A stretch of 64,000 nt of DNA from Candidatus Kapaibacterium sp. Lineage in GTDB: Bacteria > Bacteroidota > Ignavibacteria > Kapaibacteriales > UBA7675. The translations under genes were made by a program, and so were the position numbers. Shown in pieces: positions 11,882-60,063 of this stretch. The notes below the pieces were generated by a model. It saw only the letters and a list, made by a program, of their open reading frames with translations, was not told the origin of the DNA and ran no database searches. How positions within the stretch are numbered: the first letter of the stretch is position 1; the number at the start of each line of letters is the position of its first letter. The stretch is taken from the NCBI GenBank assembly GCA_028284775.1, contig JANQRB010000044.1, positions 65,342 to 129,341 of the forward strand, in the 5' to 3' direction.

Positions 11882-13072
11882 TTAGAGTTCCCAGACGGAG
11901 ACATCTTCGATGACTTCGTTAAGGGCTTGCGGCAGCGAGGCCAGGGCGTGCCGCAAATCCGCAATCAGATCCTCGATGTCTTCGATACCGACCGACAGCC
12001 GGATCAGGTTATCGCTGATGCCGGCCAGGAGACGCTGTTCGGGCCGCATCGAGGCGTGACTCATCGTGGCGGGATGCTCGATGAGCGATTCCACGCCCCC
12101 GACCGACACCGCCAGATTAAACACGCGCACTGTTCGCAAGACATGTTCCGCGGCGGCCTGATCGCCGGTTACGGTAAACGAAAGGATGCCGCCGAAGCCT
12201 TCCTGCTGCCGGCAGGCCAGTTCGTGATCGTCATGGCTTGCGAGTCCGGGATAGAGCACGCGTTCAACCGCCGGATGATCTTCCAGGAAGCGCGCCACCG
12301 CCAGGGCGTTTGCTTCATGCCGGCGCATGCGCAGTGGCAGGGTTTTCATGCCGCGCAGCACCAGCCAGCAATCGAAGGGCGCGGCCCCCGTACCGTAGGC
12401 ATTGGCCAGAAAACGGATCTTTTCAGCCAACTCGTCCGTCGCGGCCACCAGCGCGCCGCCGATGACATCGGAATGGCCGTTTAAGTATTTTGTGGTTGAA
12501 TGAACGACAATGTCCGCTCCATACTGAAGCGGCTTCTGCAAAAGAGGTGAGAGAAAGGTATTGTCAACAATCAGCAGCAAACCCTGTTCTTGGGCCAGAT
12601 CGGCCAGATAGCCGAGGTCGACGACGCGAAGAAGTGGATTGGAAGGAGTTTCGACCCAGAGCGCCTTCGTCTCCGGTCGCAGGGCTGCCCGCAGCGCGGC
12701 GCTGTCGCGAAGATCGACGTAGTCTACATCGATCTTGGCCTGCGAGGCCAGGTGAGTCAGCAGGCGTTCAGTGCCGCCGTAACAGTCATGGGAACAAATG
12801 ATATGAGCGCCGGCATCCAGCACATGGAGGGCGGTGGCGATTGCCGCCATTCCGCTGGACAGTGCCACGGCGTCCGCGCCGCCTTCCAGGGCAGCCAGCG
12901 ACTCTTCCAGCGCGCTGCGGGTGGGGTTGCCGCTGCGCGTGTAGTCATAACCTTTGTCGCTGCCGACATCGTCAAATCGGAAAACGGCTGTTTGATAAAT
13001 CGGCGGTGCAATGGAGTTAAAGGCGGTATCGGTATCGCGGCCGGCCAGGGCCAGGCGTGTACTGTGTTGCAT
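11882..13072 (-). CDS. Cys/Met-metabolism PLP-dependent enzyme (cystathionine gamma-synthase / beta-lyase family)
   Basis: 396 aa. The N-terminus MQHSTRLALAGRD...IAPPIYQTAVF and the PLP-lysine region HSTTKYLNGHSDVIGGALV are characteristic of the Cys_Met_Meta_PP family. An in-frame TAG upstream fixes the ATG at 13072. Confidence 0.9.
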   Translation of the reverse strand: MQHSTRLALAGRDTDTAFNSIAPPIYQTAVFRFDDVGSDKGYDYTRSGNPTRSALEESLAALEGGADAVALSSGMAAIATALHVLDAGAHIICSHDCYGGTERLLTHLASQAKIDVDYVDLRDSAALRAALRPETKALWVETPSNPLLRVVDLGYLADLAQEQGLLLIVDNTFLSPLLQKPLQYGADIVVHSTTKYLNGHSDVIGGALVAATDELAEKIRFLANAYGTGAAPFDCWLVLRGMKTLPLRMRRHEANALAVARFLEDHPAVERVLYPGLASHDDHELACRQQEGFGGILSFTVTGDQAAAEHVLRTVRVFNLAVSVGGVESLIEHPATMSHASMRPEQRLLAGISDNLIRLSVGIEDIEDLIADLRHALASLPQALNEVIEDVSVWEL

Positions 13073-13223: not shown

Positions 13224-13831
13224 GCACAAGCTTTGGCAGCATTGATTGAAACTCCGCTCATCGTTCCCGTTTCTGCTTCGGGCAGGATTTAGCACCATGA
13301 CGGAGTTTCGCTTTTGGCGAAGCCCCCGGTTGCTACGACGTCTTCGGGCCTGATCCCTCGGTCGTTCTCGATGAGAGCGCCGCAAATATACAGCGCTTGC
13401 TTCGCACAATGCAAATTTTTTTGTAAAAGCTGAAGCTCGTGCGAAGGCTAGCAGCACAGATATCCGCGCAGACCGAGCAGACCATTAACGACTTGCCGAA
13501 TGCCGCTATAGCGTGAGTCTGCTGCATGGTTGCTTAACATATCTTCCACATTTTCAAGTCCAGCAGCACGGCCTCTACAGTCGATTGACTGCGATCACAG
13601 CCGCCCGACAGTTTGCTGAAATCGAAGTGAACCAACCTTTTTATGTTTAAATAGCAGAACAGCGATTTTTCAAATTAGTTTCTTGTATATTTTTACCCTC
13701 TTAAAACAAGGAAGTGCGACGCAGACTGAGCGTTGAATGGAAGAAATTATGAATTTTCAGCGGATTCTTAACTCCCCTAGCCCTTCTTTCAAAAAAGAGG
13801 CGGACTTGAAAATTACTTGGTTGACAAAGCA

Positions 13832-22492: not shown

Positions 22493-22683
22493 AGGGTGAT
22501 CTCATCGCTCCAGTCGATGAGTATCCGACCGAAGTGGAGAATCGGATGCTGGAAATCCACCATTGTCCCACAATGAATATTGAGCCTTCGGCCATTCTTC
22601 ATTGTATGGCATCGTCCTTGGACGTAATTTTTCCGTCAACCACTGGAACCTCCGACGCTGATCACAATCAGGAGAAGGACTCG

Positions 22684-25600
22684 ATGTCGGGAGCGCTACG
22701 TTTTTTCACTGCGTCCGGGGGGGCTCGTCCCTGGTCCGACTTTCTACGTATGTACTGCTTAGTCCTTGTATTTTTTTGTTGTTGCGCCCAGTCAGCGGCG
22801 CAGATTGCAGCCATTAGCACGAAGTCCGACCGGGACTTCCAACGTATCGGCACGGAGCATGGACTTTCCAACAGCTACGTTGAAGTAATGTTACAGGATA
22901 GCAAGGGATTCATGTGGTTCGGAACCAGCGACGGCCTTAACAAATATGACGGTTATGAGTTCACGGTCTACAAGCCGGACCGCAGCAATCCGCATTCGAT
23001 TACCGACAATACCGTCACTGCGCTGCTCGAAGCGTCAGACGGTTTATTGTGGATGGGTACGTCCGAAGGCAAACTGTGTTCATTTGACCGCCGAGATGAA
23101 AAGTTTACAACCTACTCAATCGAATCGACGCCGATCTTCGGCACCGCAATCAGCAGCATCACCGGCATTGTCGAAGATCAACACCGAAAGCTCTGGCTGA
23201 CAAACTATGCCAACAGGTTCTTCTGTTTTGATCCGGACAGCGGTGTCTTCAGCGAGCACAGCGCTATTTTCAGGGGCCCGCGCGGTGACGAGGATGTTTA
23301 CTTTAACGTCGAAAGCCTGCTGGCGGACGGCGGCGGCGTTTGGATCGGTACATCGAAGGGCCTGTTGCATTATCAGCCATACAGCGGCAGAGCAGACCAC
23401 TACCCGCAGCCATCCGATACGGATACCTCGCTGTACCATACCGAGGTAATAAGTATTCTCAAGGCCGCCGAAGGAAAATTTATCGTATTAACGAAAGTCG
23501 GCTTGTACAGCTTTGACCCCGCACTGGAAACTTTTACTCCGCTGCTCAGATGCGATCGCGAGCCGGATGCGCCACCTCTCGGCTTTTTTCATGTTTTGGC
23601 TCCCGGCAGCGACGGTAGCTATTGGATTGGTACAATCGCCCATGGTTTATATCAGTTTCTGCCGCAGTCAAATAAACTGATTCATCACGAACATCATCCG
23701 CTGTATCCCAACAGTTTGAGCAGCAATTCGATTTTTGCCCTCGAGGTCGACCGCTTTGGCACGCTGTGGGCCGGTACTCGTTTTGGTGTTAACAAGCTTT
23801 CCGTCTCAGCGAAGAATTTCAGAACAATCGGCGGCGAACGCGCCTTCACTCAAGGAATGCGCAATCGCGTCGTGCGCGCACTGTGCCACGATCGACGGGG
23901 CTACCTCTGGATTGGAACCGACGGCGGACCATACTATATTCACGATAGCGCGACGGAGATGGCTATCGGGCGTCCGAAAGCCGGCGCCCGCGCGTTTTAT
24001 GACAGTCCCGTTAACGCGATTTACGAAGATAGCTACGGCTGGATATGGATCGGATACTCCAACCTGCATCAGACGGCTTACCATCCGGACAAAGGTGAAA
24101 TCAGGCAGTATGCTTTTCTGTCGGATTCATGCCGGCAGGTTCTCGGCCCCATCTATTGCTTCGCGGAGGATCACGAAGGCCGATTATGGACCGGAACCCG
24201 CAAGGGATTGCGGCGTTTCGACAGGGATGCGGATCGATTCGAGGAATTCGGATACGGCATCCTGCAACTCCATAGAACATACTTTTATGTTTTTGACATT
24301 CTGGAAGTGGAAAACGGCATACTGTGGCTCGCCACTAACGAAGGGCTTTATGTCTTTAACACGCGAATAGGGCGCTACATCCGACGTTACACAATGGATG
24401 CGCAGGACAGCAGCTCGATCAGTTCCAATGAAACATGGTGTTTGCATCGCGATCGTCGGGGGCGTATCTGGGTAGGAACGTTCGGACAGGGAATTAATCT
24501 TTACGATCCCCAAAGCGATTCCTTTCGCAGCTTTAACGAAGCGGAAGGACTGCCCAGCGGCGCAACCTTCGGTATACTGGAAGATGATCGCGGACGACTG
24601 TGGATCAGTACCGCCAGAGGTCTTTCCCGCTTCGACCCTCGCAGCGGCATTTTTCGCAATTACGATGTACAGGATGGCCTGCAAAGCAATGCTTTCTACT
24701 TCGGCGCCTACCATCACAGTAAGTACAGCGGCGAAATGTTCTTCGGCGGCGAAAACGGTGTTAACCGCTTTCACCCCGACAGTGTGCGCTATAATCCGCA
24801 CGAGCCGCTGCTCGCGATAACCGAGCTCCAGGTATCAGACAGCACATGGCGCAGAGAAATGCTCGATGGCGACAGCCTGAATCTCTCGTATCGCGACAAT
24901 TTCATCACATTCACGTTTGCCGCGCTTGACTACAACAATCCCGGTAAACATCAATATCGATACATGCTCGAAGGCGTTGACGACAAGTGGGTGGAGTGCG
25001 GCACCCGTCGCTTTGCCGCTTATACCAAACTACCGGCCGGTGACTATACCTTCCGTTTGCAGGGTTCGAACAGCGACGGAGTTTGGAATCATCGCGGCAT
25101 CACCATTCCGGTGAGGATTGCGCCGCCATTCTGGAATACGCTGCTCTTTCGCAGCGGCGTCGCGCTGCTGCTGATTGCTCTGGTAGGCTGGGGGGCACAC
25201 CGGTGGACCAAAGCGGTACAGCGCAAAGCGGATCTTAAACGCCAGGTGCTGGAATCCGAGTTGGAAGCATTGCGTTTGCAGATGAATCCGCACTTCATGT
25301 TTAATTCGCTGCATTCGATTCAACACTTTATCATTAAACATGACCAGGACACGGCCTATACCTATCTGGCGCGTTTTGCCAGTCTGATGCGTATGACACT
25401 GGAAAACTCGCGCAAACAAGAAATATCGCTTGCGCGCGAGTTAATGACGCTGGAATTGTATCTCGAGCTCGAAACACTGCGCTTCGGACACAAGATACGA
25501 TATGTTATTGACCTTGATTGCACGATTGACAGCGAGCAGCTGATGCTGCCGCCGATGCTTCTGCAGCCATTTGTAGAAAATGCCATTGTTCACGGTCTGC

Positions 25601-25899
25601 AACCGAAAATCGGCCCCTGTCTTCTCACAATTGCCGTTCGCCGGCAGGGCGACCAGATTGTCTGCACGGTGGAAGACAACGGCGTCGGCCGCACCTTTGC
25701 CCGCCGGCAGAAACAGAAAAACCGCAACCGGCATCTGTCGATCGGAATGAAGGTCGCGCGCAAGCGACTCGAACGCCTCACCGCCCAAATGCAACAATCC
25801 ATGAGTATACATGTCACCGATCTGTTCGACGCGCATGGTCAGGCCTCCGGCACCCGCGTCGACATCACCCTTGCGGCGAGTGAGATCTCCCGTGTTTAA
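22684..25899 (+). CDS. Sensor histidine kinase, propeller + Y_Y_Y + TM + LytS-type His_kinase + HATPase_c (paralog 3 of 3)
   Basis: Start reassigned to ATG 22684 (MSGALRFF...) with AGGAGAAGG SD 6 nt upstream. Signal/TM MYCLVLVFFCCCAQSAAQ. Y_Y_Y YRYMLEGVDDKWVECGTRRFAAYTKLPAGDYTFRLQGSNSDGVW; H-box LQMNPHFMFNSLHSIQHF. Confidence 0.9.
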   Translation: MSGALRFFTASGGARPWSDFLRMYCLVLVFFCCCAQSAAQIAAISTKSDRDFQRIGTEHGLSNSYVEVMLQDSKGFMWFGTSDGLNKYDGYEFTVYKPDRSNPHSITDNTVTALLEASDGLLWMGTSEGKLCSFDRRDEKFTTYSIESTPIFGTAISSITGIVEDQHRKLWLTNYANRFFCFDPDSGVFSEHSAIFRGPRGDEDVYFNVESLLADGGGVWIGTSKGLLHYQPYSGRADHYPQPSDTDTSLYHTEVISILKAAEGKFIVLTKVGLYSFDPALETFTPLLRCDREPDAPPLGFFHVLAPGSDGSYWIGTIAHGLYQFLPQSNKLIHHEHHPLYPNSLSSNSIFALEVDRFGTLWAGTRFGVNKLSVSAKNFRTIGGERAFTQGMRNRVVRALCHDRRGYLWIGTDGGPYYIHDSATEMAIGRPKAGARAFYDSPVNAIYEDSYGWIWIGYSNLHQTAYHPDKGEIRQYAFLSDSCRQVLGPIYCFAEDHEGRLWTGTRKGLRRFDRDADRFEEFGYGILQLHRTYFYVFDILEVENGILWLATNEGLYVFNTRIGRYIRRYTMDAQDSSSISSNETWCLHRDRRGRIWVGTFGQGINLYDPQSDSFRSFNEAEGLPSGATFGILEDDRGRLWISTARGLSRFDPRSGIFRNYDVQDGLQSNAFYFGAYHHSKYSGEMFFGGENGVNRFHPDSVRYNPHEPLLAITELQVSDSTWRREMLDGDSLNLSYRDNFITFTFAALDYNNPGKHQYRYMLEGVDDKWVECGTRRFAAYTKLPAGDYTFRLQGSNSDGVWNHRGITIPVRIAPPFWNTLLFRSGVALLLIALVGWGAHRWTKAVQRKADLKRQVLESELEALRLQMNPHFMFNSLHSIQHFIIKHDQDTAYTYLARFASLMRMTLENSRKQEISLARELMTLELYLELETLRFGHKIRYVIDLDCTIDSEQLMLPPMLLQPFVENAIVHGLQPKIGPCLLTIAVRRQGDQIVCTVEDNGVGRTFARRQKQKNRNRHLSIGMKVARKRLERLTAQMQQSMSIHVTDLFDAHGQASGTRVDITLAASEISRV

Positions 25900-35246: not shown

Positions 35247-38201
35247 ATGAAAACAAAGTATGACGCTCAATTGAAAGGTCATCTTTCCTTTGATGATCAG
35301 AACGTGGTCAGGTACATCAATCACAATCAGCAGTACTGGCTTGCCGCAACGAATAATCCACGGCAGCTTGCCTGCGAATATGTACAGCAGGTGGCGGCTA
35401 CTTTTCACATCGGCGAGAGCCAGGTTAATCATTTACATCAGCGCGTCGATTTTCTCAATCCCCGCAAGCAGGCCATCGAATTCCGTCTAAGCGATGAGAA
35501 GAGCCAGTTCGATGCTACAACAATCGGCTTTTATCAAACCTGTAATAATGTACCGGTCTGGCGCGCGGGACTTTCCGTCAGTGTTAAACAGAATCCGGCC
35601 CGGGTCGTTTTTGCCGTCAACAATGCGCAGCAGAATGTTGCCTGCAGCATGCCGTCAAGCAAACTGATCGATACCTACAAGCGGCTGTTCGAGCAAATTC
35701 AGAAGACCGGGTCCGGCGGTGAAACAGGGGAGGGGGGCGACGAGGGAGATGCTACTTCCACCTTTCTGGAGCAGATACTAAAATCCGGCAGGACCGGTAA
35801 GGTCGGCGGCGGCAAAAAGGCCGGCGAAACGGCCGCCGGCACTCCGCGGGCGCGGCTGAATCGCGGACGCTTTTATGTCTACCGCTACGATAGTTCGCAA
35901 CGACTGGCGGATCATGATCATCAGACGCACGACCCGAGCACAGGCGGTGAAACGGAAGGCCCGCATCCTACACTGCCGCTGCCGGCGGTGCCGGACGCCA
36001 TCAAGGACAAAGAATATTACCTGGTGGCGGAGCTCCTGTTTACATTACCGTATCCGGGCTACGGCAGCATGAACTGGCGGGCCCTTGTGGATGTCGGCAG
36101 CAACACGGTATTATACCTGCGCTCGCTCGTGGATAATGTTAATGGCCTCGTGTTTAAGCAAGATCCGATCACTTCGACCGGCATTCTGTCCAATTCGGCG
36201 GACAAGGACAATATGACGCTCAACCCGCTCCGCAGCGACGAGCTGCTCAGCAACCTGGATGCGCCTGTCGACGACGTTCAATCCTTGCGCGGCAGTTTCG
36301 TTCAATTAGTCGATGACAACCTCCCCACTATCGACGCTCCGACGCAGCCGGGTGGAGATGATTTCGATTATGAAGTGCGCACGAACAACTTCGCGGCCGT
36401 CAGCGCCTACTATCATTCCAACAATCTCTTTGCGACGATCGAAGACCTCGGCTTTAACGTGGCCAGCTATTTCGACGGAACGAGCTTCCCGGTACGCGTG
36501 GACCACAGAGGCAAAAACGGCACGGTTAATGCGTCCTGCAGCGGCGATGCGCAAGGCGATGGTATCGGTCTGGTCGCTTTCGGCCTGGGCCACGCCGCCG
36601 ACACTATGAATCCGATCGGTCGCGCAGTCGATAATTATGTACACTGGCATGAAATCGGTGGCCACGGAATTCTGTGGGATCATGTGGAATCGCCGAACTT
36701 CGGCTTCGCGCACAGTGCCGGCGACTCATTAGCGGCAATCCAGAACGACCCGACCTCGATGCTGCGTGACAAGCCTGAGCGCTTCCGCTACGCGCCTTTT
36801 CGTCCTTTGCGCCGGCTGGACCGTGATGTGACGGCGGGCTGGGCCTGGGGCGGCGCGTTTGATGCCGGTGGCTACCTGAGTGAGGAGATTCTTGCGACCA
36901 CCCTCTTCCGCATTTACCGCGCGCTGGGCGGTGATGCCGATTCACTTAATCGCCGGCGCTTCACTTCACGCGTCGTTTCCTATCTCATTCTGCGGGCGGT
37001 CGGTACATTAACGCCCGGCACCAACCCCTCTGACGCGCTTGGGTTCTGCAATGCGCTTATTGCGGTCGACCTTTTAAACTGGACTTCAGAAGGCATCTTC
37101 GGCGGCGCGTACAACAAAGTGATTCGCTGGGCTTTTGAAAAGCAGGGGCTCTATCAGCCGCCGGCCGCTCCGATGCCGGTGGTATCGGAGGGCGCGCCAC
37201 CGGAAATCGATGTTTACATCAATGACGGTCGCGACGGCGAGTACGAATACCAGAAAGTGCATTGGCATACAACCACAATCTGGAATCGATACGAAGATGA
37301 CGGACTGACAGGCCATCAGCCGCCCAAGCTTGATGAAGTTAACTACGCCTATGTAAAAATCAAAAACCGCGGGACGGAGAATGCGACGAACAATGTGCTG
37401 GTGAAAGGCTTTCACTGTCTGCCCGGTGCCGGTCTCGTCTGGCCCAATGATTTTAACCAGATGGGACCGAATGCGGGCATCAGCGTTCCCAGCGTGGCGG
37501 CCGATGACGCCGAAGAAGTGATCGTCGGTCCCTTCGAATGGTCGCCCAATGAAAACGTCTACGGTCACGACTGTATGCTGATGATTGTCTCGGCGGACGG
37601 CGACCCCAGTAATATCGACAACTTTACGGTGGGTGAGTCGATCGACGAGTGGCGTCTGGTGCCGCACGACAACAATGTCGGCCAACGCAATGTTAACCTG
37701 GTGCCGGGCGACGGCGAAAGCAGAGGACTGATGCTCGGCTTGCATAATGTGGTATTCTGGGCCGGCAACACCAGCCGTCGCCGGGCAGAGATGGAATTGA
37801 AAGTTGCGCTGCCCCGCGTGTTAGCGCAGAAAGGCTGGTCAGTTGGCTTTAAGGACATTCCCGACAGCAGGTTTACGCTTGCGGCCGGCGAACGACGCGC
37901 CGTGGCGCTCCAGGTCACGCCGGGACTGAATTTCAGCAGAGATGACATCGACAATACGCTCGACCGCGACATCAGAGTCGAGCTCTACGGCGATGGCGCG
38001 CTTTTCGGCGGAATGACTTATCGCATCGATCCGAACATGAAGGAGCCGGTCAACTTTCCAGGCAAGGTCAGCGACAGCTGTAATGACAAAGCGCAGGACC
38101 TGCTGGATTGTCTGGACCTGGGCGCTCAAAAAGTCAAAAAGATATGTGTGAAGAAAGTCTCGCTCGATATCGAGCTTGACAATGACTGCGGCTGTGATTA
38201 G
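35247..38201 (+). CDS. Large signal-less hypothetical protein (984 aa) with atypical HEIGGHGILWDH motif and C-terminal Cys cluster
   Basis: Single long ORF from ATG 35247 (no SD). No signal peptide (MKTKYDAQLKGHLSFDDQNV). Gly/Glu-rich linker (GSGGETGEGGDEGD...GKVGGGKKAGE). VHWHEIGGHGILWDHVES is metzincin-like only if one residue is deleted. C-terminus CNDKAQDLLDCLDLGAQKVKKICVKKVSLDIELDNDCGCD. Followed by a strong terminator. Confidence 0.75.
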   Translation: MKTKYDAQLKGHLSFDDQNVVRYINHNQQYWLAATNNPRQLACEYVQQVAATFHIGESQVNHLHQRVDFLNPRKQAIEFRLSDEKSQFDATTIGFYQTCNNVPVWRAGLSVSVKQNPARVVFAVNNAQQNVACSMPSSKLIDTYKRLFEQIQKTGSGGETGEGGDEGDATSTFLEQILKSGRTGKVGGGKKAGETAAGTPRARLNRGRFYVYRYDSSQRLADHDHQTHDPSTGGETEGPHPTLPLPAVPDAIKDKEYYLVAELLFTLPYPGYGSMNWRALVDVGSNTVLYLRSLVDNVNGLVFKQDPITSTGILSNSADKDNMTLNPLRSDELLSNLDAPVDDVQSLRGSFVQLVDDNLPTIDAPTQPGGDDFDYEVRTNNFAAVSAYYHSNNLFATIEDLGFNVASYFDGTSFPVRVDHRGKNGTVNASCSGDAQGDGIGLVAFGLGHAADTMNPIGRAVDNYVHWHEIGGHGILWDHVESPNFGFAHSAGDSLAAIQNDPTSMLRDKPERFRYAPFRPLRRLDRDVTAGWAWGGAFDAGGYLSEEILATTLFRIYRALGGDADSLNRRRFTSRVVSYLILRAVGTLTPGTNPSDALGFCNALIAVDLLNWTSEGIFGGAYNKVIRWAFEKQGLYQPPAAPMPVVSEGAPPEIDVYINDGRDGEYEYQKVHWHTTTIWNRYEDDGLTGHQPPKLDEVNYAYVKIKNRGTENATNNVLVKGFHCLPGAGLVWPNDFNQMGPNAGISVPSVAADDAEEVIVGPFEWSPNENVYGHDCMLMIVSADGDPSNIDNFTVGESIDEWRLVPHDNNVGQRNVNLVPGDGESRGLMLGLHNVVFWAGNTSRRRAEMELKVALPRVLAQKGWSVGFKDIPDSRFTLAAGERRAVALQVTPGLNFSRDDIDNTLDRDIRVELYGDGALFGGMTYRIDPNMKEPVNFPGKVSDSCNDKAQDLLDCLDLGAQKVKKICVKKVSLDIELDNDCGCD

Positions 38202-50432: not shown

Positions 50433-51322
50433 CGGCATTGCATTAATGGCATACGGCGAAGTCCTATCACGCCAAGCGTCATGAATTTGAATTGATGCCA
50501 AGAACAGGCAGCGGTGAATCACCGTTTCATTATCATCAGAATGAACGAAATATCGTTGACAGCGGTACAATGAAGATTGTGGCGGTCTTTAACAATCTTG
50601 CCGCACTTCCATTCCTGAACCGTGTTCTTCACAATGTCGTCGGATCACTGTTTTCAAACCGACCTGCTTTGTTAAAGTCAGAGATCATTCGAAAGAGTTT
50701 ATCTTCTAGCAGTGGCAAATCGGTTTTTTTGTTGTTTCCAGCTTGTTAAGCTCCTTCTTCCCAACAATGTCGATTAACAGCACAAGTCTCGCCAATGTCG
50801 GAGCAGGCAGCAATATAGCCATTCTCTAGGTCGGCAGCAGCATAGTCGTGTTTGAAGCAAGGGCCTTCCGGTCGATATCAGCGGCTGCGCCACGGCATGT
50901 CCCGTCGCACATGGCCTTATAAGCTTCCATAGAATCAGCTATGAACTGCGGACGCCAAGCATCCTGAGCTTGAGGCCCGAGTTAAATTCTGCCGACGGGC
51001 ATCGACAAGGTGACCTCGTCACTTTAGAAAGGTACATTTGCCCCGGCTTTAGGGAATTTTGCAATCGAAGGGAAAGGCGACAGGCGGGCAGTCAGGGAGG
51101 TAAGAACATCATTATCAGCTTAACTCTTAGTGGTGCTTGCGGCGGCATCTACATCCAATCCTAGCTTAAGATCGTCGTTCGACGTCGCCGGCGTTCTATC
51201 CGATGGAATGCTGCGGATTCACTATCGACGGTCGTAGAAAAACTTAAAAGTAAGGGCCTCTTGATCATCGCCGGACCAGCCGCTCTTCGGCCGGAGAACA
51301 TAAGTGTACGAGTTGTTTCCCT

Positions 51323-54276: not shown

Positions 54277-55272
54277 TCAATCTTTAAGATGCTGCAGTCG
54301 TGCGATCCAGTATTGTTCTTTGTCGCTGCCGGCGGCACGCAGGGCAGCCAGAGACCGCGACTTCAGTTGCAGCGCATCGGCCCGACGACCTTCCTGACCG
54401 GCGCCGAATGCCAATTCTCCCAATAGCTCGCCCTGTAGCTCCCGCCATTGGCCTGATTCCGCCAAAGCAAGCGCGCGTTTCAGTATGCTGCGACTGCTAT
54501 CCGGGTGGCCGAGCTGACGGTGAGCAACGCCAATCTGGCGCAGGCTGCGAACCCGATCCGCCGAGCCGGGCGGCGGCAGGTGCTCCCAGAGACCTAGAAT
54601 GACTTCTTCGATCTTCTGCGCTTTCGCTCCACCGCTTTCCACAAAGCCGTGCATTCGCTGTGATGCGTCGGAGGCCGATTTTGGCACTGTGTTTGCGTTG
54701 CGGGAACTGTCTGTTTGCGCCGCTTCTGCATCCGAAGGCGTCGGTACGTCGGGGATCTGACGCTCCGGCTCGACGGCTGACGGGCTGGGGGCCGGTACCG
54801 CCGCGGGCTGCGAATGTGAAATCGCCTCATCGACGGACTCCGTTTGATGGAAAGAACTGAAATTCTCCGACGGTGTCGCGGTCTGGTCATCACGCGTGGC
54901 GACCGGAAGAGGCGTCTTCTCCGTTGGAGCCGGCAGGACGTCACCAGCGGCGCCGGTATCATCGCCGGGTGCGAGCCATAGCAGCGAGCTGAGAATTATC
55001 ACACCCGCGCCGGCAAACCACAGCCAGAGCGGAGGCCGCCGCCGCTGGATCTGCAGTGCTGCCCGAATGCTTTCTTTAGTCGCAGCGCGATAATCAAGGG
55101 CGCGCGCGTCGCGGGACTGCTGTTCCGCCGTCAGGATTGTTTCCAGTCGCTGAAGGTCATGCAGTTCCTCAGCCAGAGAGCTGTCGTGCATCAGCAAGGC
55201 ATCGAGCTCGGCCTGCTCGGCGGGACTGAGGCTGCCGTCCAAAGCTTTAGCGATTAATTCATCATGTCTCAT
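54277..55272 (-). CDS. Membrane-anchored anti-sigma factor (putative), single TM, periplasmic C-terminal helical domain
   Basis: ATGA start/stop overlap with the upstream ECF sigma gene (55269-55272). N-terminus MRHDELIAKALDGSLSPAEQAELDALL resembles an anti-sigma N-domain. TM helix LWLWFAGAGVIILSSLLWLA. Pro/Ala-rich linker, then a helical C-terminus. Confidence 0.6.
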   Translation of the reverse strand: MRHDELIAKALDGSLSPAEQAELDALLMHDSSLAEELHDLQRLETILTAEQQSRDARALDYRAATKESIRAALQIQRRRPPLWLWFAGAGVIILSSLLWLAPGDDTGAAGDVLPAPTEKTPLPVATRDDQTATPSENFSSFHQTESVDEAISHSQPAAVPAPSPSAVEPERQIPDVPTPSDAEAAQTDSSRNANTVPKSASDASQRMHGFVESGGAKAQKIEEVILGLWEHLPPPGSADRVRSLRQIGVAHRQLGHPDSSRSILKRALALAESGQWRELQGELLGELAFGAGQEGRRADALQLKSRSLAALRAAGSDKEQYWIARLQHLKD

Positions 55273-55826
55273 TCTTCATCTGATAAATAGGGTTGCAGAC
55301 TTGTACGAAGCATTTTCTTGGCGCGATGGATGCGCACTTTCACGAGCGCCATCGAAATATCGAGCCGCTGCGCTATTTCGTGATAGGCAAAGCCATCCCT
55401 GTATTTTAACTCGAAAGCAGCGCGGAACTCCTCCGGGAGTGCGGCGATCGCTTTGTTCAAAGCTTCAGCGAAAAAAATATCCTTATCCGGTCCTCTCTCC
55501 GGAGCCGCGAGTGCATAGCCCGCGTCATCGATGTCGGTCGTCTGCAATTGGTTGCGTACCGACAGCAGACAGTTGTTCCGCGCGATGGTAAACATCCAGC
55601 CGGCAAAGTTGCCTCCCTTGAATTGTTCCGCTTTCTGAAACACCGTCATCAAGGTCGATTGATAGATATCTTCGGCAACCTGCCGGTTCTTCGTCGCTGC
55701 CAGACAGTAGGCATACAACCGCCGATCATAACGCCGGTACAACTCGTCGAAAGCAGCCTCATCCCTCTGTTGTATAAGGGTCAGGAGCGCTTCGTCTGTC
55801 TGACACTGGTACGCCGCTTTGTTCAT
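55269..55826 (-). CDS. ECF-subfamily RNA polymerase sigma-70 factor
   Basis: 185 aa. Region-2-like YRRYDRRLYAYCLAATKNRQVAEDIYQSTLMTVF and a region-4 HTH near the C-terminus (FAYHEIAQRLDISMALVKVRIHRAKKMLR). Confidence 0.85.
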   Translation of the reverse strand: MNKAAYQCQTDEALLTLIQQRDEAAFDELYRRYDRRLYAYCLAATKNRQVAEDIYQSTLMTVFQKAEQFKGGNFAGWMFTIARNNCLLSVRNQLQTTDIDDAGYALAAPERGPDKDIFFAEALNKAIAALPEEFRAAFELKYRDGFAYHEIAQRLDISMALVKVRIHRAKKMLRTSLQPYLSDEE

Positions 55827-55894
55827 TCTTCGCAGTCCGTTTCATTGCTTCGGGGGCAGGAATACACAATATCGGCAATTGTTACAAGGGTATT

Positions 55895-56069
55895 CTTGTG
55901 GATTGAGATTATTTAGGATTGGTCGGGGGTGGTTTGTGGGGCGACCACGGGGGACACGGAGGCACGGGGGACACTTCAGTTGGCGGGCTCTTGTGGATGG
56001 AGATTATTCAGGATTGGTCGGAGGTGGTTTGTGGGGCGACCACGGGGGACACGGAGGCACGGGGGACAT
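55895..56069 (+). repeat. Tandem direct repeat: two ~80-bp G-tract-rich units with 95-bp period in the sigma/heme-cluster divergent intergenic region
   Basis: Unit 1 is 55895-55974 (cttgtggattgagattatttaggattggtcgggggtggtttgtggggcgaccacgggggacacggaggcacgggggacac). Unit 2 is 55990-56069, differing at ~4 positions, with a 15-bp spacer. Each unit has G5/G4/G5/G5 tracts. GGATTGG occurs in each unit and again at ~56141. Confidence 0.9.
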
Positions 56070-56273
56070 TTTAGCGGCTGCGGCTTTGGGTGAAGATGGC
56101 GGTTGCCTGTTAAGAAAAATGGGCGGGACTGTAACAATCGGATTGGATTTACATTCCTGGCGCAAGTTTTATTATTGCTTCGGCGGAATTAACAAATAGC
56201 ATCGCGTGGAGTATTGTGAAGGGTGCTATGTCGGCGGCGGCAATTTTTTCGGATTATTCGGATGCAAAGTTGT

Positions 56274-57518
56274 ATGATTAAACAACAGACCATCAAGGCG
56301 CTGGCATTAAGTCTGGCGATCGTGCTCCTGCCGCACTGCAGTTCAGACGAGGACGGCGGTAGTCCGAGCTCTCCTTCCCTGGAAGATGCCGTGATAATTG
56401 ATCCCGCGGATGCTGCGATCGCGATAGGTGAGCAGCTTCAACTACAGGCCCGGCATGCAGGCGCAGCGGTTGAAGTTCATTGGAAGGTGGCGCAAGGGCC
56501 GGGCAGCATCGACGACAGCGGCGTCTACAGCGCGCCCGCGAGCCTGACGGTTCGTTCGGTAACCGCCACCATTCGGGCCACGATGCAGCGTGACGAGTCG
56601 ATTCGCGGCTTTGCGCAGATTGTCGTCAGCACTAACGAACCCGACCCAAATGACGATCCCGGTACAACGGTCTCCCTGGCAGTACAGCCTGAGTCGGCCG
56701 CGCTCAATCTTAACGAAGAGCTGCAGTGCCAGGCATTTTTCAACGGCCAGCCTGCAAGCGGCGTTTCCTGGGCAGTGACGGAAGGGCCCGGAACGGTCGA
56801 TGCCAATGGACTCTACCGCGCGCCATCCTCAATTGACGCGTCAAAGCTGCGCGCCCTCATCGAGGTCCGTAGCGCGGGATCGCCGCCACTCACGCGCAGC
56901 GTAGAAGTTCAAGTATACAACTACATGCCCGGCACGGTCTGTTTTCAGCGCGACGTGATGCCGATGCTCTTGTCGAACTGCGCTATGAGCGGCTGTCACG
57001 ACGCCAAGACACATGCCGATGGCATAGACCTCTCCAGTTATGAAGCGATGATGCGCTCGCATGAAACGGTACGGCCGTACAATGCGGGAGACAGTGAACT
57101 CTACGAGTCGATCACCGACTTCGGCGATGACGACCTGATGCCGCCGCCGCCCCGCGATCCGTTGTCAAAAGAGCAGATTGCACTGGTCCGACGCTGGATC
57201 AATGAAGGCGCCCCGGACTCGGATTGCGCTCCGCCGGACGGCAGCAACTGCGATACGGTCGATGTCGGCTTCCGTTCTACCATTCAGCCTCTGATGCAAA
57301 GCTATTGCGTCGGCTGCCACAGCAATGCCGCGCCGGCAGACAATCTTGCTCTGGAAAGCTACGAACAGGTCCGCAACTCAGCTCGCGATGGCGGCCTCCT
57401 GGGATCGATCGTCCACGATCCGGCTTACAAAGCCATGCCGTCAAAGGATCTGAAGCTGAACGACTGCCAGATCAAACAGATCCGGGTCTGGATTGCTGCC
57501 GGTACACCGGATAACTAA
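56274..57518 (+). CDS. Lipoprotein with two Ig-like (Big_2-type) domains and two PSCyt1-type (Planctomycete cytochrome c) c-heme-binding modules
   Basis: Start tentatively at ATG 56274 (MIKQQTIKALALSLAIVLLPHCSS); the track start is GTG 56223. Module 1 is FQRDVMPMLLSNCAMSGCHDAK...LMPPPP...WINEGAP (C-x4-CH). Module 2 is FRSTIQPLMQSYCVGCHSNAAP...AMPS...WIAAGTP (canonical CxxCH). Both follow the PSCyt1 pattern F..V.P.L...C..CH...MPP...WI..G. Confidence 0.75.
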   Translation: MIKQQTIKALALSLAIVLLPHCSSDEDGGSPSSPSLEDAVIIDPADAAIAIGEQLQLQARHAGAAVEVHWKVAQGPGSIDDSGVYSAPASLTVRSVTATIRATMQRDESIRGFAQIVVSTNEPDPNDDPGTTVSLAVQPESAALNLNEELQCQAFFNGQPASGVSWAVTEGPGTVDANGLYRAPSSIDASKLRALIEVRSAGSPPLTRSVEVQVYNYMPGTVCFQRDVMPMLLSNCAMSGCHDAKTHADGIDLSSYEAMMRSHETVRPYNAGDSELYESITDFGDDDLMPPPPRDPLSKEQIALVRRWINEGAPDSDCAPPDGSNCDTVDVGFRSTIQPLMQSYCVGCHSNAAPADNLALESYEQVRNSARDGGLLGSIVHDPAYKAMPSKDLKLNDCQIKQIRVWIAAGTPDN

Positions 57519-57753
57519 ATCCTGTCCGCTTCCGCAAGAAGATAATCTCTCTTCGTTTGTCCGTTCCCCCCGACACTTCTTTGCCCGGGCAAAGAATGGC
57601 GTCGGGGGTCGTTTTTTCGGCAATAATTGGCCGGAAGAAAAAATTCATTCCCAGATTGGTCGGGATTGATGAACTTTGCGGTCAGAAAGACCTCCGGCAA
57701 GGACTAGTGCTCAATCGTTCAGTACTATTCACCAGAAAGGAGAAGTTGCGACC

Positions 57754-58281
57754 GTGAAATCCAACAAAGCAGGCAACTGGAGACGATGGATACTTTGGGG
57801 ACTGCTGGCGCTCGTCATTGTCATTCAGCTGATTCCGGTGGAACGCGGTAATCCGCCCGTTGAAACGACCATCGGTGCACCCGAGGCCGTAATGGCTATT
57901 CTGCGCAGCGCCTGTTACGACTGTCATTCCAATGAATCGCATTGGCCCTGGTACAGTTATGTTGCGCCTGTTTCCTGGCTTATTGCGCACGATGTGGAGG
58001 AAGGCCGCGAGCATCTCAACTTTTCGACCTGGAACCGATTCAGCGACAAAGACCGCGTTGAGCTGCGCGAGGAGATATGGGAGGAAGTCGAAGAGGGCGA
58101 AATGCCGCTCGCAATTTATTTGCCATTGCACCCCGAAGCCGAGCTGAGTGAGAGCCAGAAAGCCACGTTACGCAGTTGGGCTCTCGGCAGCGCACACAGT
58201 GGCAACCGGGACGCGCGTCTGGAGCCGAGCCAGGCCCGCAGCGGCGAGGAGCATCAAGACGCAAGCCATGAAACACATTAA
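57754..58281 (+). CDS. Membrane-anchored Haem_bd (PF14376-like) heme-binding domain protein
   Basis: GTG 57754 with AAAGGAGAAG SD ~8 nt upstream (the track ORF starts at TTG 57676). N-terminal TM WRRWILWGLLALVIVIQLIPV. CYDCHSNESHWPWYSYVAPVSWLIAHDVEEGREHLNFSTW matches the Haem_bd signature, including CxxCH. Confidence 0.7.
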   Translation: MKSNKAGNWRRWILWGLLALVIVIQLIPVERGNPPVETTIGAPEAVMAILRSACYDCHSNESHWPWYSYVAPVSWLIAHDVEEGREHLNFSTWNRFSDKDRVELREEIWEEVEEGEMPLAIYLPLHPEAELSESQKATLRSWALGSAHSGNRDARLEPSQARSGEEHQDASHETH

Positions 58282-58401: not shown

Positions 58402-60063
58402 ATGAAAAAGCCGCTGATAGTTGCACTTGACGACGACCCGCAGGTGCTCAGAGCGATCCGACGCGATCTACGCAATGAATACCGCGAAGAGTATCGCATA
58501 CTTTCCACGACCTCGGCGCGGGAAGCATTGGAGTCCTTGAAAGAGTTGAAGCTGCGTGGCGAGAAAATCGCGCTTTTCATTTCCGACCAGCGGATGCCAG
58601 AAATGGAGGGCGTCGACTATCTGGAGCGGGCCAAGGAGATTTTCCCCGAGGCGCGGCGCGTGCTCCTGACGGCATATTCCGATACGGAAGCGGCCATTAA
58701 AGCGATCAATGACGTGCAGCTCGACTACTATCTGATGAAACCCTGGGATCCGCCGGAAGAAAAATTGTACCCTGTGCTGAACGACCTGCTCGACGAATGG
58801 CAGGCGAGCTACCGGCCGGACTTCGAAGGCATCAAAATCGTAGGCTATCAGTGGTCGCCGCGCTCGCATGGCATTAAGGACTTTCTGGCGGGCAACCTGA
58901 TTCCTTACCTTTGGCTGGATATCGAATCGAATGAGGAAGCACGCCGCTTGATCGACGCTGCCGGCGTGGCGCATAAAGAGTTGCCGGCGGTGTTTTTCGA
59001 GGACGGCAGCCACATGGAGAATCCCACAGCAACCCGGATCGCCGCAAAAATTGGCATGAATGCCCACGCTTCCGACACGATGTACGACGTCGTGATTGTT
59101 GGCGCCGGCCCGGCGGGTCTGGCTGCGGCCGTTTATGGCGCATCGGAAGGCCTCAAAACGCTGCTGGTGGAAAAGCGGGCGCCGGGCGGGCAGGCGGGCA
59201 CAAGTTCGCGCATCGAAAATTACCTCGGCTTCCCGAAAGGTCTGAGCGGCTCGCAGCTCACGCAACGCGCCATCACCCAGGCCACTCGACTGGGGGCGGA
59301 GTTCCTGCTGCCGCAGGAAGTCAAAAGCATCAGCCTGCGCGATAAATACAAAATCATTACACTCGCCGACGGTGCTGAGATCCACGCGCTCAGCGTCATC
59401 ACGACTACAGGCGTGGACTACCGCAAGCTCGCGACCAAGGGCATTGCTGATTTCACCGGGGCGGGCGTTTATTACGGCGCGGCGACGACGGAGGCGGCAG
59501 CCTGCCGCGATAAGGACGTCTATATCGTCGGCGGCGGCAACTCGGCCGGACAGGCTGCCATGTATCTCTCGACATTCGCCAGCAATGTCTACATTCTTAT
59601 CCGCCGCGACTCGTTGAAACACTCGATGTCGCAGTACCTTATAGACCAGATTGCCGGCACAGCCAATATCGTGCTGCAGCCGCATACGGTGGTAGAAGAA
59701 GCTATCGGCAACGGCAACCTGAGCGCCCTGGTGCTGAAAGACCTGAATAGCAATGAATGCCGCAGGGTAGAGGCGGGCTCGCTCTTCATCTTTATCGGCG
59801 CACGCCCCTATACCGAGTGGCTGGAAGCCGATATCATCAAGAATCAGCGCGGCTTTATCGAAACTGGACGCGACCTGATCCGGCATCCGGACTTTAAGAA
59901 AGTCTGGAAACTCGATCGCGAGCCTTTCCTGCTGGAATCGAGCTCGCCCGGCCTCTTTGCCGCCGGCGACGTGCGCGCCGGCGCCATGAACCGCGTCGCT
60001 TCGGCCGTCGGCGAAGGATCGATGGCCATCAAATTTGTCCACGAGTACCTGGCTCAGCTCTGA
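58402..60063 (+). CDS. Response-regulator receiver (REC) domain fused to a thioredoxin-reductase-fold FAD/NAD(P)H flavoprotein that lacks the CxxC redox centre
   Basis: ATG 58402 with AAAGGA SD. REC has LDDD (res 9-12), phosphoacceptor Asp in FISDQRMPEMEG, T in VLLTAY and K in YYLMKPW. The C-terminal ~330 aa have TrxB-like Rossmann motifs (VVIVGAGPAGLAAAVY ; YIVGGGNSAGQAAMYL). TrxB 'CATC' aligns to AATTEAAAC, so there is no CxxC. Confidence 0.85.
   Translation: MKKPLIVALDDDPQVLRAIRRDLRNEYREEYRILSTTSAREALESLKELKLRGEKIALFISDQRMPEMEGVDYLERAKEIFPEARRVLLTAYSDTEAAIKAINDVQLDYYLMKPWDPPEEKLYPVLNDLLDEWQASYRPDFEGIKIVGYQWSPRSHGIKDFLAGNLIPYLWLDIESNEEARRLIDAAGVAHKELPAVFFEDGSHMENPTATRIAAKIGMNAHASDTMYDVVIVGAGPAGLAAAVYGASEGLKTLLVEKRAPGGQAGTSSRIENYLGFPKGLSGSQLTQRAITQATRLGAEFLLPQEVKSISLRDKYKIITLADGAEIHALSVITTTGVDYRKLATKGIADFTGAGVYYGAATTEAAACRDKDVYIVGGGNSAGQAAMYLSTFASNVYILIRRDSLKHSMSQYLIDQIAGTANIVLQPHTVVEEAIGNGNLSALVLKDLNSNECRRVEAGSLFIFIGARPYTEWLEADIIKNQRGFIETGRDLIRHPDFKKVWKLDREPFLLESSSPGLFAAGDVRAGAMNRVASAVGEGSMAIKFVHEYLAQL

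Follow-up and report, generated by a model that had tools for sequence, protein, structure and literature searches.

A lineage-specific 95-bp tandem duplication, probably a passive spacer, between two conserved divergent ECF-type promoters in a Candidatus Kapaibacterium contig

In a 64,000-nucleotide stretch of a Candidatus Kapaibacterium contig (JANQRB010000044.1, positions 65,342 to 129,341; hereafter the window, from whose first letter all positions are counted), a G-rich tandem repeat with a period of 95 bp separates two divergent promoters of the extracytoplasmic function (ECF) type, one facing a sigma/anti-sigma operon and the other a cytochrome operon. The repeat is real, lies outside both core promoters and is absent from every orthologous locus found. 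We suggest, with a probability of roughly 60%, that it represents a lineage-specific insertion of about 207 bp combined with duplication of a 95-bp unit, forming a passive spacer that has no dedicated function beyond its effect on geometry. As an element it is a new instance of a common and known kind, the intergenic tandem duplication with a compositional propensity for G-quadruplex formation.

When the whole 64-kb window was searched with Tandem Repeats Finder (TRF), a repeat was reported at 55894-56068 with a period of 95, 1.8 copies, 96% matches and a score of 329, and a repeat search of the window recovered two 86-nt copies of 94% identity at 55894-55979 and 55989-56074. The 33- to 36-mers of the unit match the window only at these two copies, compared with an expectation of 0.00 from shuffled sequences. 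With copies arranged head to tail and a similarity beyond chance, the element belongs to the class of tandem repeats or minisatellites, and its existence and position are as an earlier note on this DNA, made from the letters, had described them. The same note had called it the only sizeable tandem repeat of the window, which also holds, as all remaining repeats found by TRF have a period of 24 or less. Its parts are as follows.

55894..55988, no strand: repeat unit 1, the full 95 bp (TRF, repeat search, pairwise comparison)
55989..56074, no strand: repeat unit 2, 86 alignable nt with 94% identity (TRF, repeat search, pairwise comparison)
55928..55973, + strand: identical 46-mer, copy 1, equal to 56023-56068 (pairwise comparison)
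56023..56068, + strand: identical 46-mer, copy 2 (pairwise comparison), at whose boundaries the k=31 Logan contigs described below break

Unit 1 consists of an AT-richer head, GTGGATTGAGATTATTTAGGATTGG, and a G-rich core in which the runs follow the pattern G5-N8-G4-N7-G5-N12-G5. This pattern of four G-runs had been ascribed to both units; it stands for unit 1, but in unit 2 the first run is interrupted (GGAGG), and the likeness of unit 2 to unit 1 ends after about 56074. The two units differ at three positions in their first 80 nt, namely 55904 (T/G), 55914 (T/C) and 55927 (G/A), and the repeat comprises about 1.9 copies overall. What had been taken for a 15-bp spacer between the units is actually the tail of the 95-bp unit, and these 15 nt at the junction (55974-55988) occur nowhere else. 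Each 46-mer holds CACGGGGGACA twice, 17 nt apart, and the resulting four copies, to be compared with 0.74 expected, are the only ones in the window on either strand. The 181 bp of the repeat region contain 79 G and 27 C (44% G, with a GC skew that peaks at +0.5) and include 5 of the 30 plus-strand runs of five or more G in the window. No significant degenerate third copy lies downstream, since the local alignment of flank to unit was no better than 367 of 500 shuffles, and derivation of the unit from its flanks was rejected on the same grounds.

An assembly artefact would be a natural suspicion, since the contig evidently comes from a metagenome assembly and the differences between units resemble single-nucleotide polymorphisms (SNPs); the repeat would then be a collapsed or duplicated one, or two strain variants joined end to end. 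This possibility can be judged from an independent assembly, the Logan k=31 contigs of run SRR20820731, the one sample that carries the sequence, with evidence taken from contigs rather than reads. Both the sigma and the cytochrome proteins of the window are encoded on these contigs. The sigma-side contig ends at 55957, the last base of the final 31-mer holding the distinguishing base 55927, and on the cytochrome side the contig opens at 56039, where the earliest 31-mer to include the distinguishing base 56069 begins. The ends fall exactly at these predicted positions because the de Bruijn graph branches at a true repeat with a shared 46-mer, and the contigs break at such branch points rather than at SNP sites, where bubbles caused by strain variation would behave otherwise. 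Moreover, the 15-nt junction is unique, a sequence that an assembler cannot invent, and merging of strain variants therefore cannot produce the repeat. Gene order on both sides of the site agrees with that of orthologous loci, so that the contig is not chimeric here. An artefact, which the earlier note had named as a possible refutation, is thus extremely improbable, and we conclude that the repeat is present in the underlying DNA and is not a product of the assembler.

The divergent promoter setting described in the earlier note is likewise confirmed. Both promoters can be placed, with the whole of the repeat between their -35 boxes.

55857..55886, - strand: putative ECF-type promoter of the sigma/anti-sigma operon, TGTAACAATTGCCGATATTGTGTATTCCTG (pattern statistics, orthologue conservation)
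56130..56159, + strand: putative ECF-type promoter of the cytochrome operon, TGTAACAATCGGATTGGATTTACATTCCTG (pattern statistics, orthologue conservation)

In the sigma promoter, the -35 element TGTAAC occupies 55886-55881 and a -10-like GTATTC occupies 55865-55860, approximately 30-60 nt upstream of the ATG at 55826. The pattern TGTAACAAT-N14-ATTCCTG has three matches in the window against 0.04 expected, and the pattern TGTAAC-N15-17-ATTC three against 0.21. A perfect 9-bp inverted repeat, ATTGTTACA/TGTAACAAT, brackets the tandem repeat and forms the core of both divergent promoters. Furthermore, alignment shows the -35 boxes and -10 regions of both promoters to be conserved in the three closest related loci (L003, L008 and L009), and about 42 retrieved loci with sigma homologues carry TGTAAC-N15-17-G(G/T)(A)TTC(T)T at 45-180 nt upstream of the gene. 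This arrangement can be read as the signature of an autoregulated ECF promoter. Motifs that are common to the sigma gene and its putative target and that are conserved in orthologues define a divergent ECF-sigma promoter pair, and the sigma factor of the window would be expected to recognize both sites. Inside the unit, neither a pattern search nor a consensus scan found an extra ECF or sigma-70 promoter. The 9-bp inverted repeats, which flank 243 bp, might recall an invertible DNA switch of the fimS type; this candidate was rejected, as these repeats are nothing other than the pair of -35 boxes, which stand 37-40 bp apart in the orthologues, and the neighbouring genes scanned (35 to 63 kb) include no recombinase.

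Three further observations concern these motifs and their surroundings. A third near-copy of the promoter motif, TTTAACAATCTTGCCGCACTTCCATTCCTG, with one mismatch, lies at 50588-50617 (+ strand) in the gap 50433-51322, an ORF (open reading frame)-poor stretch of about 890 bp between the gene for a 1030-aa DUF7948/SBBP protein and a Rieske gene. It points to the 3' end of the Rieske gene, in a stretch where no Rfam match was found, and it could drive an unannotated small gene or a non-coding or antisense RNA, or could be a relic. A match to TGTAAC-N15-17-ATTC, TGTAACGTCGGATGTAGCGCCCTATTC, at 24365-24391 (- strand) falls within the opposite-strand ORF 22534-25899 and is probably due to chance. 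Finally, a 31-nt direct similarity of 71% on the plus strand links 55844-55874 (ATTGCTTCGGGGGCAGGAATACACAATATCG), which overlaps the -10 region and leader of the sigma promoter, with 56174-56204 (ATTGCTTCGGCGGAATTAACAAATAGCATCG) in the cytochrome leader; it is possibly a chance match.

The relatives of the sigma factor belong to Kapaibacteria- and Ignavibacteria-like metagenome-assembled genomes (MAGs), and in the closest loci, L003, L008 and L009, the sigma factor is 67% identical to that of the window. The distance from one -35 box to the other is 243 bp in the window versus 37-40 bp in these three loci and about 71 bp in the more distant L004. The alignment attributes this difference to a single segment.

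55888..56094, no strand: segment of about 207 bp missing from the orthologous intergenic regions, comprising the repeat and short flanks (alignment with L003, L008 and L009; boundaries approximate)

The gap begins directly upstream of the -35 box of the sigma promoter, and the 35 bp that remain up to the cytochrome -35 box correspond to the orthologous spacer length. Both promoters align base for base between the window and the three loci, and synteny is kept on both sides. Taken together, the gap in the orthologues and the conservation of the promoters therefore place the repeat upstream of both -35 boxes, in DNA found in this lineage only. A tandem repeat between the promoters was detected by TRF in none of 87 related loci, on which count tandem repeats were rejected as a recurring trait of the promoter regions of this sigma family. 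The repeats that TRF does find in the 87 loci lie elsewhere, in the region of the divergent gene (L003 and L008) or in a far-upstream, hairpin-containing intergenic array (L087).

The repeat in L087, a locus from a Candidatus Kapaibacterium MAG, is an intergenic tandem repeat at 18-306 with a period of 83-85 bp, 3.5 copies and 85% identity, whose units each hold hairpins of the GGGAATC/GATTCCC type; long-period intergenic repeats hence occur in the group, though not at the promoter pair. In the orthologues L008 (1705-2276) and L003 (4827-5226), long GAT/GAC-rich tandem repeats with periods of 27-75 at the divergent-gene region would encode an acidic repeat linker, and the cytochrome protein of the window has no such repeat.

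We propose the following course of events. The unit would have been acquired, or would have grown, in non-essential spacer DNA between the promoters, and the 95-bp unit would then have been duplicated head to tail by replication slippage or unequal recombination, the processes by which bacterial intergenic minisatellites arise and change. Both the insertion and the duplication would be recent. The main consequence is probably passive and concerns geometry: the distance between the -35 boxes has grown from about 40 to 243 bp, and different DNA now adjoins the sigma promoter -35 on its upstream side. The minus-strand promoter (55886-55857) would autoregulate the sigma/anti-sigma operon, and the plus-strand promoter (56130-56159) would drive an operon encoding the cytochrome c, haem-binding and receiver-oxidoreductase proteins. 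The G-quadruplex propensity of the repeat, discussed below, would be a by-product of its G content and not a selected design.

Several points weigh against a purely passive spacer. Lack of conservation does not prove lack of function, as the nearest sigma factor is only 67% identical and a young regulatory element would look alike. The repeat sits where divergent transcription would generate negative supercoiling, and it gives the top G4Hunter signal of the whole window at window sizes of 50, 100 and 180 nt (1.66). In addition, the 46-nt G-rich core is identical in the two copies and all three differences fall in the AT-richer head, a distribution with a chance probability of about 0.08, which is only suggestive, and the four copies of CACGGGGGACA are regularly spaced at 17 nt within each unit. 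Moreover, within the source genome the absence of further copies is a result for the 64-kb window.

The alternative to which several of these points lead is that the repeat acts through non-B DNA, with G-quadruplexes on the plus strand and i-motifs on the C-rich strand forming upon under-winding by divergent transcription and coupling, insulating or tuning both promoters. In the twin-domain model negative supercoils build up between divergent transcription units, and the repeat is located exactly between divergent promoters. The G-quadruplex potential noticed earlier is real: besides the first rank at the three larger window sizes, G4Hunter gives 1.84, 1.72 and 1.72 within the repeat in 25-nt windows, the GC skew is marked, and unit 1 (55925-55970) fits an extended motif of four runs of G3+ with loops of up to 12 nt (G3+ N1-12 x4). 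By the G4Hunter threshold of 1.5 or more and the motif of unit 1, the repeat would be classed as G-quadruplex-prone in this extended sense. However, the potential is less than the earlier note implied. No canonical motif (four runs of at least three G, loops of 1-7) was found in the repeat by a regular-expression scan, whose sole match in the window is at 59177-59198; unit 2 lacks a fourth long run and with it the extended motif; and in 25-nt windows the repeat is exceeded by 35727-35751, inside an ORF. ViennaRNA with quadruplex energies predicts two-tetrad structures only, and a quadruplex likewise appears in the minimum-energy fold of 92-107 out of 200 composition-matched shuffles. The propensity is moderate and mostly due to the 44% G content rather than to the arrangement of the G-runs. 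The orthologues, furthermore, keep the same promoter pair without any G-rich DNA. We therefore consider an action through non-B DNA unlikely, and it would be distinctly speculative to see in the repeat a young, lineage-specific, supercoiling-responsive quadruplex or i-motif device that couples or insulates sigma autoregulation and cytochrome expression, with copy number setting its strength.

It would also be tempting to read the repeat as an array of regulator-binding sites, in which four copies of CACGGGGGACA and about four of GGATTG are operators for a transcription factor that modulates one or both ECF promoters, the duplication having doubled the sites. The excess of exact CACGGGGGACA copies over expectation and their even spacing speak for such an array, and the head of unit 1 would be centred about 60 nt upstream of the predicted sigma start, a typical position for an activator. 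However, two of the four CACGGGGGACA copies result merely from the duplication, the sequence recurs nowhere else in the window, the sites are missing in the orthologues, and a spacing of 17 nt is not that of the helical repeat. Nor was any DNA-binding regulator besides the sigma factor found among the genes examined from 35 to 63 kb. The element GGATTGG, for which a third occurrence downstream had been claimed, is indeed present at 56140-56146, but this copy falls within the cytochrome promoter, in its spacer, and the orthologues do not share it; as the heptamer has 16 occurrences in the window where 9.6 would be expected, it is at chance level and was rejected as a meaningful element. An operator array thus appears improbable. 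Even less probable is a copy-number-variable, phase-variable minisatellite, in which gain or loss of 95 bp by recombination would alter promoter geometry and switch expression. Head-to-tail copies with an identical 46-nt stretch would be a suitable substrate for slippage or unequal exchange; however, there are only about 1.9 copies, and the complete -35 and -10 elements of each promoter lie outside the repeat, so that copy number leaves the core spacing unchanged. Only one sample carries the sequence, no variant of it was found, and the de Bruijn breakpoints fit two copies with no sign of heterogeneity. To the regulator-binding array, phase-variable element and structural element that the earlier note had offered, comparison adds nothing, as L003, L008 and L009 have no such sequence, and the sequence comparisons lend no apparent support to a regulatory or structural role of the repeat.

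The repeat is also unlikely to be expressed in its own right. A small non-coding RNA, for instance a GGA-rich protein sponge, or a part of a long 5' leader might be imagined, given that the 181 nt contain 12 GGA triplets compared with about six expected from composition. However, a consensus scan found no sigma-70-type promoter or terminator inside the repeat, and both recognizable promoters are directed away from it. Rfam returned nothing for the repeat at gathering score and, at E-values up to 10, one chance-level match outside the repeat; ARAGORN found no tRNA or tmRNA in the repeat region. Fold z-scores relative to shuffles were -0.54 (+ strand) and +0.21 (- strand), minimum free energies on both strands being equal to those of shuffles. 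A known RNA family and a stable RNA or DNA fold were thereby rejected, the repeat does not behave as a structured non-coding RNA, and an origin as small RNA or leader is scarcely credible. As for protein, the 126-codon ORF 55819-56199, which the earlier note rightly distrusted, yields ...GRGWFVGRPRGTRRHGGH... from unit 1 but ...GGGLWGDHGGHGGTGD... from unit 2, and no Pfam match was found for it. The period is not a multiple of three (95 mod 3 = 2), as a protein-coding repeat would require, and with the units read in different frames and no Pfam family, a coding repeat or real ORF was rejected. The template/variable pair of a diversity-generating retroelement was rejected as well, because only one of the three differences involves A and the repeat is non-coding; the genes scanned between 35 and 63 kb include no reverse transcriptase.

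There is equally little to suggest a dispersed or mobile family, such as repetitive extragenic palindromic (REP) sequences, mycobacterial interspersed repetitive units (MIRU) or elements resembling miniature inverted-repeat transposable elements (MITEs). Neither k-mer searches nor blastn of the insert against the masked window revealed further copies of the unit within the 64 kb, blastn giving nothing meaningful. An exact 28-mer of the unit had no match in the genome representatives of 185,579 species, a 24-mer none in the Joint Genome Institute (JGI) metagenomes and two 22-mers none in IMG/VR, and no terminal inverted repeats were found at the insertion boundaries. The repeat is accordingly a single locus in the window, which is the part of its own genome covered here, and in the public collections searched, and the mobile candidates were rejected.

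The genes on either side give the promoter pair its context.

55269..55826, - strand: ECF sigma factor, 185 aa (Pfam Sigma70_r2, Sigma70_r4_2 and Sigma70_ECF; orthologues 67% identical)
54277..55272, - strand: 331-aa protein with a weak TPR match, putative anti-sigma factor
56262..57518, + strand: cytochrome c protein with PSCyt1 and Cytochrome_CBB3 domains (Pfam; the ATG at 56262 matches the public gene call)
57676..58281, + strand: haem-binding protein (Haem_bd), next downstream (Pfam)
58402..60063, + strand: receiver domain fused to a pyridine nucleotide-disulphide oxidoreductase, with no DNA-binding domain (Pfam)

The start of the gene for the 331-aa TPR protein overlaps the stop codon of the sigma gene, with which it would be co-transcribed. 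In L002, L003, L004 and L008 it likewise follows the sigma gene, and the protein is probably the anti-sigma factor. The divergent cytochrome gene has an orthologue in L004 and L005, and partly in L008. Within the cytochrome leader of about 100 nt, a terminator-like hairpin, TGTCGGCGGCGGCA, followed by ATTTTTT, is found at 56229-56248 (+ strand); it lies about 15 nt before the ATG at 56262 and could serve as an attenuator in the leader or could have arisen by chance. Elsewhere in the window, a full-length S-adenosylmethionine (SAM) riboswitch (RF00162, 71 bits) lies at 13255-13377 (- strand), just upstream of the same-strand ORF 11882-13072.

As a single unconserved tandem duplication in spacer DNA, the repeat itself matters little. 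The more solid result is the conserved ECF promoter pair, by which, in Kapaibacteria-like bacteria, a sigma/anti-sigma operon is linked with one for cytochrome c and haem proteins. The locus amounts to a natural experiment, as the same promoter pair is about 40 bp apart in relatives and 243 bp apart here, and it could show whether spacing or G-rich DNA affects the coupling of divergent ECF promoters. The repeat would be of wider interest only if it turned out to act as an array of operators or as a quadruplex element that responds to supercoiling.

Among known repeats, the closest in form are the MIRU of Mycobacterium tuberculosis, intergenic minisatellites of 40-100 bp (variable number tandem repeats, VNTRs) that constitute a dispersed family at many loci with documented copy-number polymorphism. 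Like them, the repeat described here is arranged head to tail with a unit of tens of base pairs, and is non-coding, intergenic and close to promoters; unlike them, it is known from one locus with about 1.9 copies, with no second one in the 64 kb or in the public collections searched. A looser search for CACGGGGGACA-N5-7-CACGGGGGACA led to 75 metagenome loci, which are 9-bp microsatellites of the form (CACGGGGGA)n, some of them coding and many forming hairpin arms; none has the rest of the unit, and they were rejected as homologues. Some form intergenic hairpins in several unrelated metagenomes (L137, 6044-6134; L139, 3383-3568; L096, 1953-2125; L143, 1930-2006; L094, 14558-14640), closed by AACCACGG...CCGTGGTT, their loops measuring 20-150 nt, and in some cases followed by T-runs. 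What such hairpins (L137, L139, L096 and L143) have in common with the G-rich core of the repeat is a stretch of about 30 nt with 9-nt periodicity, ACCACGGGGGACACGG(A/G)GG(A)CACGGGGGACA. However, they are inverted repeats, AACCACGG...CCGTGGTT, that form long hairpins, whereas the two copies here are direct, and nowhere in the window is there a complementary arm. Since the similarity is confined to the low-complexity core, we treat it as a probable convergence of simple sequence.

The repeat also invites comparison with promoter-proximal G-quadruplex motifs of bacteria. It is likewise a strand-asymmetric cluster of G-runs less than 250 bp upstream of two genes, with G4Hunter scores above 1.5. 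In contrast to those motifs, its loops, with lengths of 8, 7 and 12 nt, go beyond what the canonical motif allows, four long runs occur in one unit only, two-tetrad structures are predicted and about half of the shuffles do equally well, and the sequence is not conserved in orthologues.

For the promoter pair, the nearest parallels are autoregulated ECF sigma factors whose promoters have TGTAAC as -35 element, such as the ECF16-type BcrS of Brucella melitensis, and EcfF of Bradyrhizobium japonicum. That TGTAAC serves as an ECF -35 element is documented, with (T/C)GTAAC-N17-CGAA as the consensus for ECF16; BcrS controls its own expression and is a direct activator of the bcrXQP operon (PMC8315932, PMC3420878). 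The -10 region differs, being GTATTC or GGTTCTT-like here and not CGAA, and the sigma factor of the window carries no ECF group assignment. None of the BcrS/EcfF-type systems is described with a tandem repeat between the promoters, and the likeness concerns the context rather than the repeat: here, as in those systems, a sigma/anti-sigma operon and a target operon each possess a TGTAAC -35 element, and the sigma factor would likewise control its own expression.

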